This document shows positions 286 through 3,680 of a stretch of 64,000 bases of DNA, piece after piece. The stretch spans positions 1,920,001 through 1,984,000 of the forward strand of contig CBDBGH010000003.1 of NCBI GenBank assembly GCA_965205265.1, given 5' to 3'. A program made the position numbers and the translations under genes. Origin of the DNA: Alphaproteobacteria bacterium. GTDB taxonomy: Bacteria; Pseudomonadota; Alphaproteobacteria; Bin95. Position 1 is the stretch's first letter. Each line of letters begins with the position of its first letter. The notes below the pieces were generated by a model that saw only the letters and a list, made by a program, of their open reading frames with translations, did no database searches and had not been told where the DNA came from.

Positions 286-1119
286 CTATTGTCGAGTCAA
301 CGAAAACGCGCCTGCGATTCCGCTGCGCTCGAACACGCCGCCGGCCTCTTCGTGATTCGGGCCGTAGAACCGTCCCTCAAGCCCACCGCTGCCGCTGAAC
401 TCACCACCCCGCATCGAGATGCCTTGCCAGCTAATGTCGCTGCTGCGAGTGCCGGAAGTGTCGGCAATGTTCGTGAACGCGAGGTCGAGGGTCTCCGCCG
501 CAAGGTTGGCGGTCATCGCTGCGTCGCCAGTGACTTCTCGGCCGAGACTCGAACTGCCGACCCTCACGCCGGCCATCGCGCCTGTCCATATCGCGCTGCC
601 GGAGACCGGGTTCGACCCGCTGCCCATCCCGAGGGACGCGGGAAAGGCGAACTGGACGTCAACGCCTTGAATGGTCGTCGAGCCGCGAAGCGGCGTCCCG
701 GCGTTGTAGTTTCCCCAAACGCCGAAGGTGTTGAAGTTGAAGCCATCACCGCTGGCGGTCGCCCGGCCTGTCTGTACACCGTTGCGAGTCTGCTGGCCGG
801 TGATCGTCACGGCCGGCCCGTTCGGATCGACATCGCGCAGATCGAGCGTTGCGCTCTCGCCTTGGAATGTCACCGTGCAGGTCGAGCCGCTGCATGATGA
901 GTTCGCCCGGAACAACGAGCCTTGCACGGCAATGAGTACATCGCCGACAACGACGGTGTCGGGCGCGGCGCCGGGGTCCGTAGGGGTCGTGGGGGCTGGC
1001 GGGTTGCCGGGGCCGGTCGGCCCTCCGTTCATGGCGGTTCCGCCGCCTCCCCCGCCTCCGCAGGATGCGAGAACGAAAACAGCGGCCAACGCCGCCAGAG
1101 TGCGAAAAGTCATGGACAT
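286..1119 (-). CDS. Surface lipoprotein with transferrin-binding-protein-like (TbpB/Slam-substrate type) C-terminal beta-barrel
   Basis: Lipobox LASC followed by GGGGGG and a Pro-rich linker; C-terminus GLEGRFYGPNHEEAGGVF...GAF is typical of TbpB-type barrels. Confidence 0.75.
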   Translation of the reverse strand: MSMTFRTLAALAAVFVLASCGGGGGGGTAMNGGPTGPGNPPAPTTPTDPGAAPDTVVVGDVLIAVQGSLFRANSSCSGSTCTVTFQGESATLDLRDVDPNGPAVTITGQQTRNGVQTGRATASGDGFNFNTFGVWGNYNAGTPLRGSTTIQGVDVQFAFPASLGMGSGSNPVSGSAIWTGAMAGVRVGSSSLGREVTGDAAMTANLAAETLDLAFTNIADTSGTRSSDISWQGISMRGGEFSGSGGLEGRFYGPNHEEAGGVFERSGIAGAFSLTRQ

Positions 1120-1324
1120 TCCCTTCCTGTTACACCCAGCGGAGTCGCCGGGCTGTTGCAGACATTCCCAGGAATCTGGAAGGTCCCCGCCTATTCGCCG
1201 GGTGCAGGGGAGCTACCCCAACACCGGGTTCCGGCTGTTCTATTCAGCGGGCAACCCGGCACAGGCCGAGAGCCCTAGGAATGTCTGCGAGAGTCAGTTT
1301 GCGGGGGGAAAATCATGGATGCAA
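1115..1324 (-). promoter_or_regulatory. Putative sigma70 promoter plus structured 5' leader of the lipoprotein gene
   Basis: Minus-strand TTGCAT (1324-1319)-N17-CAAACT (1301-1296); inverted repeat 1158-1168/1278-1288; GACATTCCC repeated at 1115-1123 and 1161-1169. Confidence 0.5.
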
Positions 1325-2463: not shown

Positions 2464-2492
2464 AATATAGGGAGGATTGCAGCCCATGTCAA
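2464..2492 (-). promoter_or_regulatory. Sigma70 promoter of the IS1595 transposase
   Basis: TTGACA (2492-2487)-N17-TATATT (2469-2464); the -35 overlaps the inner edge of the TIR. Confidence 0.7.
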
Positions 2493-3424
2493 GTCATCTT
2501 TGTAATCCCCTCATGTTTTGTCATGGTCGGGTGCGAAACCGGGGTTTCGGGGCGGGTTGAAGGGGGCGGCCCATTCTCGAGCCGGTTGAGGCTGTCGGCC
2601 TGGCGGCGTTCGATGTTTTCCGGCGACCAGGGGTCGTGGATCTCGGCATAGCCGTTGCGGCGCTGGTAGAGCCAGTCGGTTTCCGCGCCCTCGGCCCTCT
2701 CCTCCTCGCCCGGGCGGTCGCCGTCGGCCCACTCGCCGGGGAACCGCTCCGGGTCGTAGGTGTCTTCGGGCGGGTCGTCAGCGAGGGGCAGGTCGTTTGC
2801 CGGAGGCGGCGGCGGGTCGAAGCGGACGGGCAGGCTCTCGCGCTCCTCGACGGCCGCCATGAGCCTTGCGGCAAGCTGCGCATGGGCGGCCCCGCCGAAG
2901 CCTTCCCCTGCCTCCATCGCCTCCCTGTTCCCGCAATGGCGGGCAAGGGCGCGCTCGGCGCGGGCACGGCCATTGCGCACGGCTTCGGCGAGGGGTCCCG
3001 GCACGGTGCCGGCCTCCTGCGCCTCGCCGGCCTCGATCTCCCCGAACTCGTCCTCCTCCGGCATCGACCAGAGCGCCGCCCGGTTGGCCGGCTGCGTCAG
3101 CCCCGCAATCTCCGCCTGGAAGCGGACGATCCGGACCATCATGTAGGCAGAGCCGCTCGCCACCGCCGCATCCCAGGCCTGCTCCAGGCGGGCGAGCACG
3201 ATCTGCGCCTCGTCCCTCTCGGTGCGCCGCCACGACATGCGGATGCGCCGCACCCGCTCGACGATCCAGGGGCGTTCCAGCAGGGCGGAGCCGGTCTGCC
3301 TTGCGGAGCGTTCGGCATAGCCGGCGCGCCTTGCGGCGTCTGCGGCATTGCCGGAGGCTGTGTAGTGGCGGCAGAAGGCTTCCTGCCGTGAGGAAAGGGA
3401 GAGGGTCGGGTCGAGCACGGGCAT
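2489..3424 (-). CDS. Orphan terminase small-subunit-like HTH protein; last codons run into the IS1595 end
   Basis: N-terminus LSSRQEAFCRHYTASGNAADAARRAGYAERSARQTGSALL matches the terminase small-subunit HTH pattern; AAGGAG RBS before ATG 3424; acidic/Pro-rich C-terminal half. Confidence 0.7.
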   Translation of the reverse strand: MPVLDPTLSLSSRQEAFCRHYTASGNAADAARRAGYAERSARQTGSALLERPWIVERVRRIRMSWRRTERDEAQIVLARLEQAWDAAVASGSAYMMVRIVRFQAEIAGLTQPANRAALWSMPEEDEFGEIEAGEAQEAGTVPGPLAEAVRNGRARAERALARHCGNREAMEAGEGFGGAAHAQLAARLMAAVEERESLPVRFDPPPPPANDLPLADDPPEDTYDPERFPGEWADGDRPGEEERAEGAETDWLYQRRNGYAEIHDPWSPENIERRQADSLNRLENGPPPSTRPETPVSHPTMTKHEGITKMT

Positions 3425-3680
3425 GGGTGCGGCTCCTTCGTTCCGGTTCGCGTTCATCCGGCACACTGCCCCGGCGGGGAGCGACCCTTATTCGCGCGTC
3501 ATCCTGCGCGGGCGCCTGTGCGCGGGCGGGCGCGTTTCGCGGCGGCGCGGTTCGCGCGCCTGATTGCCCGCGCGCGAGGCAGGCTGAGGACGCACTTCGC
3601 CTGTCGGCTGAATCGGGGTCGTTCCGCACCGGGCCGGCGCGGGCGGGAAGCGGTCCGCGCGGACTCCACTCCCTCGGACC

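Follow-up and report, generated by a model that had tools for sequence, protein, structure and literature searches.

Does the DNA between an IS1595-type transposase gene and a lipoprotein gene in an alphaproteobacterial genome encode a regulatory RNA, and how might such an RNA act? The locus lies near the start of a 64,000-nucleotide (nt) stretch, called the window here, of contig CBDBGH010000003.1 (assembly GCA_965205265.1). Coordinates refer to the window, and the leader and its gene are read on the minus strand. A preliminary description of the window had proposed that the lipoprotein open reading frame (ORF) is preceded by a structured leader of about 170 nt, in which one arm of the outer stem could pair instead with sequence over the first AUG and so switch translation. 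The strings on which that proposal drew are all in place: GCAGACAUUCC (1288-1278), GGAAUGUCUGC (1168-1158), GGAAUGUC (1122-1115), CCGGGUU (1259-1253), AACCCGG (1230-1224), GGGG-UAGCU-CCCC (1219-1207), and the promoter words TTGCAT (1324-1319) and CAAACT (1301-1296), separated by 17 nt. We found that this leader belongs to a family of structured 5'-leader RNAs, each ~145 nt long, that is strongly conserved and apparently undescribed. A structured, conserved, and covarying RNA does stand directly upstream of the lipoprotein gene and is probably regulatory; the AUG-hiding switch was not supported by comparison with its homologues.

The RNA from 1290 to 1100 folds at -94.1 kcal/mol (z = -4.73), and none of 200 shuffled sequences folded as well. 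A blastn search with the leader found eight copies of a motif of about 145 nt in the same genome, six of them distinct in sequence (there are two duplicate pairs); the other distinct copies precede two lipoprotein genes, two GT25 glycosyltransferase genes, and one small ORF. The copies share a common core, and the arms of their outer stems differ in sequence yet stay complementary within each copy. From three near-identical copies, with helices read by eye, we built a covariance model, R1 (144 positions, 31 pairs), which matches the window copy at 92.8 bits (E value, 2.3e-17; G000:C3:1921142-1921289). Applied to 34 loci, R1 gave 31 full-length matches (77 to 188 bits) and 1 partial match, which make up alignment A4. 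A further alignment, A5, holds R1 matches in at least 66 loci found by scanning GTDB species genomes (one genome per species) with a degenerate core pattern. R1 matches all of these loci, and 65 of its 68 matches there cover model positions 1 to 144.

The homologous leaders, whose collection the preliminary description had advised, show both conservation and covariation in A4 and A5. In A4, which like A5 was fitted to nested helices and is thereby biased in favor of them, 98.1% of cells are paired, compared to 81.6% after shuffling, and 25 of 40 pairs have changed on both sides; none of 500 shuffles reached any of these measures, with the proviso that related sequences alone can exceed shuffles without any structure. 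The corresponding values for A5 are 97.4% and 76.9%, with 528 doubly changed cells where 135 were expected. Partners slid out of register in A5 gave at most 50% paired cells, and RNAalifold identified compensatory changes in 28 of 32 pairs. As a check independent of the model, we paired the raw flanks of the 29 copies from the genus; all 29 form duplexes, at -24.8 to -35.6 kcal/mol, with differing arm sequences. These duplexes and the slid-partner controls argue against the outer stem, P1, being an artifact of fitting. P1 comprises 16 bp, two of them G-U, and was also found as an inverted repeat by a repeat search; all 16 pairs have changed on both sides among the homologues in A4 and A5. The imperfect stem of about 20 bp that had been proposed is therefore real in its 16-bp form, and lies far beyond chance.

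P1 surrounds a long arm with two internal-loop strands (Table 1). The distal helices P3b, P4, and P5 each show covariation, and P5 (stem, 1219-1216/1210-1207) is the previously noted hairpin GGGG-UAGCU-CCCC, whose loop is conserved in the family as G-UNGCU-C. Across eight phyla, about 30 unpaired nucleotides of the motif are nearly invariant. A covarying, aptamer-like fold with conserved unpaired nucleotides is what is expected of a riboswitch, and both components are present. The other inner hairpin of the preliminary description, CCGGGUU with AACCCGG, did not hold up, as conservation of its 3' partner does not extend beyond the genus. Pairing of S1 with the internal AACCCGG, which a minimum-free-energy (MFE) fold of the single sequence also draws, was ruled out; S1 pairs with 1155-1147 in 97.6% of cells. 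A local hairpin between J1 and S1 (P2) is weakly supported as a general helix (72.1% paired versus 70.6% after shuffling) and is convincing in some copies only, including the window subtype.

The pairing of S1 with S3 was scored over 68 sequences; beyond the 97.6% of cells paired, 16 cells were doubly changed where 4.0 were expected, and none of 500 shuffles scored as high. This helix had been left out of the model behind the alignment, and the result is hence an independent test. S1 lies inside P1 and S3 lies outside it; therefore, the two helices together form a pseudoknot. We conclude that a long-range S1:S3 helix crossing P1 is probable.

S3 has a second partner. Directly 3' of S3 is a conserved R-C-C-(A/C)-G, with both C residues present in 70 to 72 of 76 leaders, followed by an S1-like segment, S4, which forms hairpin P6 with S3. 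A complement of S3 at -10 kcal/mol or better occurs within the next 32 nt in 69 of the 76 leaders, compared to 42% of control windows (mean, -15.1 versus -9.5 kcal/mol). R2, a small covariance model of the P6 hairpin, gave 56 matches in 82 loci; 47 of these are at the expected place, with 40 to 45 of 43 to 47 cells paired at each position. The median distance from the end of P6 to the start codon is 21 nt. We conclude that pairing of S3 with S1 or with S4 is the only general alternative pairing in the family. P6 was also considered as an intrinsic terminator, and this was ruled out: five or more U residues occur in the following 8 nt in 1 of 69 leaders, and the window copy has no U-tract. Terminator-like sites in a scan of positions 900 to 1700 were confined to 1097-1078 and 1528-1516. 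In one copy from a metagenome-assembled genome (MAG), L044 (~806-874), the stretch with the P1 3' arm, S3, and P6 is repeated in tandem downstream of the motif, and R2 matches twice, at a distance of 42 nt; the 5' arm there therefore has a second perfect partner.

The preliminary description had placed a promoter such that transcription would begin near 1290. A strict consensus promoter scan of 900 to 1700 scored no promoter-like site; the placement is nevertheless plausible, because a TTG[AC][CAT] word starts 36 to 34 nt before the motif in 51 of 94 distinct leaders, compared to at most 3 at any other position. A NANNNT hexamer follows this word at a spacing of 16 to 19 nt in 41 of the 94. 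Transcription would thus most likely start at ~1289, the first base of P1, from a sigma-70-like promoter. The distance from S3 to the start codon is mostly 26 to 45 nt and typically about 35 nt. The motif therefore has a fixed position relative to both the promoter word and the start codon, on the same strand, as a riboswitch would have in a 5'-untranslated region (UTR), and it is presumably cotranscribed with the following gene.

Table 1. Features of the leader and its surroundings (window coordinates; pairing partners are given in the last column)
Feature	Coordinates	Strand	Basis or remark
Whole conserved RNA motif	1289-1142	minus	R1 covariance-model match, model positions 1-144
-35-like hexamer TTGCAT	1319-1324	minus	Sequence; promoter function is predicted
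-10-like hexamer CAAACT (weak), 17-nt spacer	1296-1301	minus	Sequence; position kept in homologues
P1 5' arm GCAGACAUUCCUAGGG	1273-1288	minus	Pairs with 1173-1158
J1 linker CUCUCGGCCUGU	1261-1272	minus	Window subtype: possible local hairpin with S1 (CUCGGC/GCCGGG)
S1 GCCGGGUUG, 5' strand of probable pseudoknot	1252-1260	minus	9 bp with S3
P3 5' strand CCCGC	1247-1251	minus	Pairs with 1190-1186; 4/5 pairs changed on both sides in A5
Internal-loop strand UGAAUAGAACA	1236-1246	minus	Nearly invariant across phyla
Distal arm	1197-1235	minus	P3b 1235-1233/1199-1197, P4 1225-1222/1204-1201, P5 hairpin 1219-1207
Internal-loop strand GAAUAG	1191-1196	minus	Nearly invariant across phyla
P3 3' strand GCGGG	1186-1190	minus	Pairs with 1251-1247
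J2 linker, pyrimidine-rich (66%)	1174-1185	minus	CCUUCC 1183-1178 complements GGAAGG 1127-1122
P1 3' arm UCCUGGGAAUGUCUGC	1158-1173	minus	Pairs with 1288-1273
S3 CAGCCCGGC, proposed switching strand	1147-1155	minus	Pairs with S1 (pseudoknot) or S4 (P6)
P6 hairpin	1135-1152	minus	CCCGGCG 1152-1146, loop ACUC, CGCUGGG (S4) 1141-1135; drawn in single-sequence MFE fold
Purine-rich ribosome-binding region AGGAAGGG	1121-1128	minus	Sequence
GGAAUGUC, proposed alternative partner of P1 5' arm	1115-1122	minus	Spans first AUG 1119-1117; pairing unexceptional, not conserved
Lipoprotein ORF, 277 aa	1119-286	minus	Lipoprotein signal (…VLASC, then Gly run)
IS1595-type transposase gene	2458-1460	minus	DDE_Tnp_IS1595, E 1.3e-41
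Intergenic stretch, 340 nt	between IS1595-type transposase gene and lipoprotein ORF		Minus-strand reading

The genes that follow the motif appear mostly to encode proteins with signal peptides, lipoproteins, or GT25 transferases. Of the 76 ORFs downstream, a hydrophobic N-terminal segment is seen in 58 and a lipobox-like motif in 26; the heuristic used is crude, flags the N termini of some GT25 proteins as well, and has a crude window background of 11 of 98. Pfam was run on 59 of the 76, with close duplicates left out. It identified GT25 in four, CsgG in two, and OMP_b-brl/Opacity in one, and Rhodanese, SNase, Big_9, FTP, T5orf172, DUF932, methyltransferase, and 4HBT in one each; 40 of the 59 had no match. 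Matches below the cutoff include TbpB_B_D for the window protein (22 bits; cutoff, 26 bits).

The distribution of the family is unusual: it is rare across its own class yet carries at least eight phylum labels and is very frequent in three sponge assemblies. A blastn search of 16 genomes of the same genus gave 2 to 11 matches in each of 14, and a single full-length copy was found, again by blastn, in a different family. When the class was sampled evenly, R1 found the motif in 4 of 150 other families. The species genomes with matches are all MAGs. Among the 66 matches listed, and by the taxon labels given on the MAG records, 33 are in Alphaproteobacteria, 5 in Gammaproteobacteria, 8 in Acidobacteriota, 9 in Gemmatimonadota, 4 in Binatota, 4 in Chloroflexota, and 1 each in Verrucomicrobiota, Thermodesulfobacteriota, and Latescibacterota. 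Mis-binning is unlikely to explain this spread, because several matches lie on contigs of 0.1 to 2.5 Mb. Motif copies come in close pairs, within about 600 nt, at two Gemmatimonadota loci (L096 and L052); the pair in L096 is divergent. Many carrier MAGs have names that resemble those of what we take to be published sponge-symbiont bins. The core pattern has at least 122 matches in JGI/GenBank metagenome contigs, a lower bound like the species-genome count. Among 80 of these listed, 46 carry the prefix MKWU01, LXNI01, or LXNJ01; in PMC5099237, MKWU, LXNI, and LXNJ denote assemblies from the sponges Aplysina aerophoba, Sarcotragus foetidus, and Petrosia ficiformis. The counts carry no claim on other habitats, such as the seawater assembly of that study. 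Neither blastn of the motif against plasmid and phage collections nor the core pattern in IMG/VR viral contigs gave any match (0 in the latter).

Our favored interpretation, which we hold with middling confidence, is that the motif is a riboswitch-like sensor that regulates the following gene in cis, with S3 toggling between the pseudoknot and P6. Each copy would be transcribed from its own sigma-70-type promoter, as an RNA that starts with the first base of P1. This RNA folds in three parts: the 16-bp closing stem P1, whose sequence is free to vary; the long arm P3-P3b-P4-P5, with the near-invariant strands UGAAUAGAACA and GAAUAG and the conserved G-UNGCU-C loop; and the 9-bp S1:S3 helix, which crosses P1 and probably yields a compact pseudoknot. 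A putative ligand or factor would stabilize the P1/pseudoknot fold. S3 would shuttle between the pseudoknot and P6; the RNA structure bordering the ribosome-binding site on its 5' side would change, and translation initiation with it. The alternation between two states, its effect on translation, and the ligand are parts of this model that we infer.

J2 pairs better with Shine-Dalgarno (SD) windows than with coding-sequence windows (-7.65 versus -5.08) and better with cognate than with noncognate SD sequences (-7.65 versus -6.77; 0 of 5,000 permutations), a small difference that kinship of the copies may inflate. For the window, the CCUUCC:GGAAGG duplex formed by J2 has an energy of -11.0 kcal/mol and ranks 5th of 74. 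In GT25 leaders, S4 pairs with the start region, as judged by eye. Pairings of this kind and the mimics of the P1 5' arm described below give one conserved core a variety of downstream partners, which resembles the expression platforms of riboswitches and is consistent with the sensor model.

Other observations weigh against a sensor that governs ribosome access. We folded 75 to 76 leaders by partition function with S3, the P1 3' arm, or J2 either blocked or free. The unpaired probability of the region from SD to AUG was 0.39 to 0.48 in every modeled state, with no general occlusion of the ribosome-binding site. It was 0.473 with S3 free and 0.447 with S3 blocked (p = 0.054), 0.421 with the 3' arm free and 0.447 with it blocked (cognate and noncognate arms being equal), and 0.431 with J2 free and 0.450 with J2 blocked. 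With shifts this small, none of the three candidates (S3 with S4, the P1 3' arm, and J2) is supported as a general occluder of the SD sequence. The sub-platforms that we did see point in opposite directions, ON in some and OFF in others. In S1:S3, one of the nine pairs has changed on both sides (39 G-C, 12 A-U), the helix otherwise resting mostly on conserved sequence, and the support from shuffles could partly reflect kinship of the sequences rather than structure; the covariation of P6 is likewise small, because S3 hardly varies. Finally, the downstream genes, mostly for exported proteins of undefined role, give no hint of a metabolite.

How do other explanations compare? The AUG-hiding switch has the P1 5' arm (GACAUUCC, 1285-1278) alternate between the 3' arm and GGAAUGUC over the first AUG. 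The 8-bp complement exists (-13.9 kcal/mol), GGGAAUGUC is present in both the 3' arm and the start region as an exact 9-nt repeat (naive chance of ~0.001, uncorrected), and the paralogue L002 retains a similar pairing (-12.8 kcal/mol). However, when we computed the duplex energy of every arm against every downstream region for 83 distinct copies, the complement proved to be no better than chance. The window 5' arm ranks 28th of 83 arms on its own downstream region (z = -0.4), and across the family, cognate 5' arms do no better than noncognate arms (-12.0 versus -11.7 kcal/mol; median rank, 39 of 83). In L010, which among the copies in other genomes of the genus is closest to that of the window, both P1 arms have changed together and the start region is unchanged, so that the pairing no longer matches (-8.7 kcal/mol). 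P1 is also twice as stable (-27.9 kcal/mol), and the second AUG (1113) has the better spacing for a start. We consider this switch highly improbable. The same comparison bears on the suggestion, also made in the preliminary description, of an antisense-type RNA like phage C4 or CI. Here, the motif would be a stable small RNA (sRNA), processed or prematurely ended, of the sRNA-Xcc1 or C4-CI type; its core (S1 to S3 plus the RCC) would be released, and the P1 3' arm would act as antisense on the 5' arm and on the ribosome-binding site. Cognate 3' arms have a modest advantage on their own downstream regions (-14.8 versus -13.5 kcal/mol), ranking first in 8 of 83 copies (~1 expected) and in the top 3 in 12, and several top-ranked copies carry a 5'-arm mimic that ends in the ribosome-binding site (for example, 16 of 16 nt in L024). 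The suggestion thus fits a minority of copies; the downstream target is missing in most, including the window, where the 3' arm ranks 72nd of 83. Matches to sRNA-Xcc1, below threshold but in the same register, occur in four of the six distinct copies of this genome; the closing helix of Xcc1 corresponds to S1:S3, and Xcc1 is itself an end-mapped RNA found upstream of a gene (see below). The conserved R-C-C-(A/C) after S3 may resemble an acceptor end. Against these points, C4 (RF01695) has no match at an E value of ≤10 in positions 900 to 1600 and none in the other copies of this genome or in 20 diverse loci, Xcc1 has none at ≤1 in those diverse loci, and the motif is absent from the phage, plasmid, and viral collections searched. 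Moreover, the promoter puts the start at P1, and the 5' arm would then be in the same RNA, with P1 already occupying the "antisense" strand. We find an sRNA of this kind doubtful.

The motif could also work without sensing anything, as a constitutive leader module: a portable promoter with a structured 5' end that protects the mRNA by burying the triphosphate end in P1, aids ribosome loading, or marks the mRNAs of exported proteins. The predicted RNA start falls exactly at P1, the folding models contain no general SD-occluding alternative, promoter and leader are found as a unit before unrelated genes in one genome, and most downstream products are exported, all of which fit such a module. A simple 5' hairpin would do for protection, however, and the near-invariant unpaired nucleotides across eight phyla, together with two mutually exclusive partners of S3, are characteristic of RNAs with a binding pocket and a switch. 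A purely constitutive role is therefore rather unlikely in our judgment. A catalytic RNA (a new class of self-cleaving ribozyme) or another autonomous RNA, for which the position before genes would be secondary, would have the compact pseudoknotted fold, the invariant unpaired nucleotides, the multiple copies, and the patchy cross-phylum spread. Against it stand the orientation and the distances to promoter and start codon, which nearly all copies keep strictly, and the absence of a match to any Rfam ribozyme family, and we give it very little credence.

If the riboswitch-like reading is correct, the family constitutes an orphan regulatory RNA, well supported and with natural variants in the hundreds. 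Its place before exported proteins would offer a handle on which surface proteins sponge symbionts coregulate, and in response to what, and it would be a case of a regulatory RNA common to several phyla within one habitat. A broader reading, which we put forward tentatively and regard as possible rather than probable, is that the motif is a new class of sensor RNA that has spread horizontally among marine-sponge symbionts of at least eight phyla. It would sense a host or community signal or a second messenger and set the exported or surface proteome, namely, surface lipoproteins, Opa-like and other outer-membrane proteins, CsgG-type secretion lipoproteins, and lipooligosaccharide glycosyltransferases. 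That would amount to an RNA regulon for host interaction, specific to one habitat and shared across phyla.

The surroundings of the leader show several further features. The IS1595 element lies upstream of the leader promoter and interrupts a divergent plus-strand ORF (1361-1459; ATG at 1361; MTRGVPVLDPK…) that has a GGAG ribosome-binding site; a comparable divergent gene start is seen upstream of leader copy L100. The association with IS1595, which the preliminary description had used as a guide to homologous leaders, is incidental, as no other copy examined has IS1595 adjoining. A minus-strand ORF at 2489-3466, next to the insertion sequence (IS), has a Terminase_2 domain (phage small terminase subunit; E value, 4.5e-13), which points to the remains of a prophage or island adjacent to the locus. 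The lipoprotein ORF has two in-frame AUGs, 6 nt apart (1119-1117 and 1113-1111); the second lies at a more usual distance from GGAAGGG, and a start there would yield a classical lipoprotein signal peptide, MTFRT…. Elsewhere on G000:C3, the leader and lipoprotein gene are duplicated at loci L003 and L002 (~364 kb and ~3086 kb) and at loci L008 and L007 (~35 kb and ~5398 kb), identical over at least 1.5 kb. One pair is inverted, and in the other, one copy is cut by an IS3-like element soon after the lipoprotein start. These are large repeats or assembly duplications (the contamination estimate for the genome is 7.28%). At locus L004, a tRNA gene (2132-2205; 72 bits) lies ~450 nt from a GT25-associated copy of the motif.

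We compared the motif with known systems using the covariance models of Rfam 15. No family scored above threshold, in agreement with the preliminary description, which had recognized none; the matches that did appear, all below threshold, were to sRNA-Xcc1. The motif was not found in the literature searched, supplements excepted; papers on sRNA-Xcc1 alone surfaced, and none described it. We conclude that the motif, absent from Rfam 15, is probably a new gene-control element. The cyclic di-GMP (c-di-GMP) riboswitch classes I and II control surface and secreted proteins. Pseudoknotted translational riboswitches of the c-di-GMP type resemble the motif in several ways: they lie in the 5' UTR, are closed by a stem of variable sequence, conserve nucleotides in junctions or internal loops, contain a pseudoknot, carry next to the ribosome-binding site a strand with two mutually exclusive partners, and have regulons in which envelope and secreted proteins abound. 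The motif differs in having no similarity to any Rfam 15 riboswitch family and no consistent SD-sequestering helix. The ompA 5' UTR carries a stabilizing stem-loop at its 5' terminus. Like it, the motif has a stem at the predicted first nucleotides of the transcript and precedes envelope-protein mRNAs, but the motif is much larger and keeps conserved unpaired nucleotides and a long-range helix across phyla. The antisense RNAs C4 of phages P1 and P7 and CI of phage P4 have upstream and downstream complements (a1b1/a2b2 or seqA/seqC). They are likewise structured RNAs encoded in leaders, and a minority of copies here have complements of one segment both upstream and at the ribosome-binding site. 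In our family, however, there is no phage context; the upstream complement, in P1, is always present, and the downstream complement, which ranks first in the eight copies mentioned above, is absent from most copies and from the window.

sRNA-Xcc1 (RF02221; gathering score, 53 bits) is the only Rfam family with any likeness to the motif. It scores 29.0 bits in the window, 31.8 in L002, 26.6 in L004, and 26.3 in L005, all below the gathering score. There is no match at an E value of ≤5 in copies L006 and L007 of the same genome or at ≤1 in 20 copies from other phyla; RF02221 gave two matches on the whole genome, both below the cutoff, and none above the cutoff in 14 control genomes. In both RNAs, a closing helix (S1:S3 here) encloses an internal-loop hairpin, which reads AAUAcAAuA / GAAU in Xcc1 and AAUAGAACA / GAAUAG here; a closing helix around an AAUA.AA.A / GAAU hairpin is thus present in the motif, with both helices supported in the family. 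Both RNAs also stand directly upstream of a protein gene in the same direction. The motif is ~60 nt longer, with a 31-nt distal arm (P3b-P5); where Xcc1 has its second hairpin, the motif has the 3' arm of P1, an additional outer stem crossing the closing helix. Its genes are for exported proteins, rather than symE or ORF6N, integron cassettes, or prophages. Xcc1 is an 88-nt RNA by end mapping (PMC2996969). In integron cassettes of Xanthomonas it precedes symE (bioRxiv 10.1101/2025.06.18.660453), in Xylella it occurs close to C4 and IsrK RNAs (PMC12189769), and APSE phages carry it ahead of an ORF6N gene (PMC7313666). The likeness, which extends over the closing helix and a single internal-loop hairpin and falls short of family membership, may reflect distant kinship, and the motif may help to clarify the role of the poorly understood sRNA-Xcc1 family.

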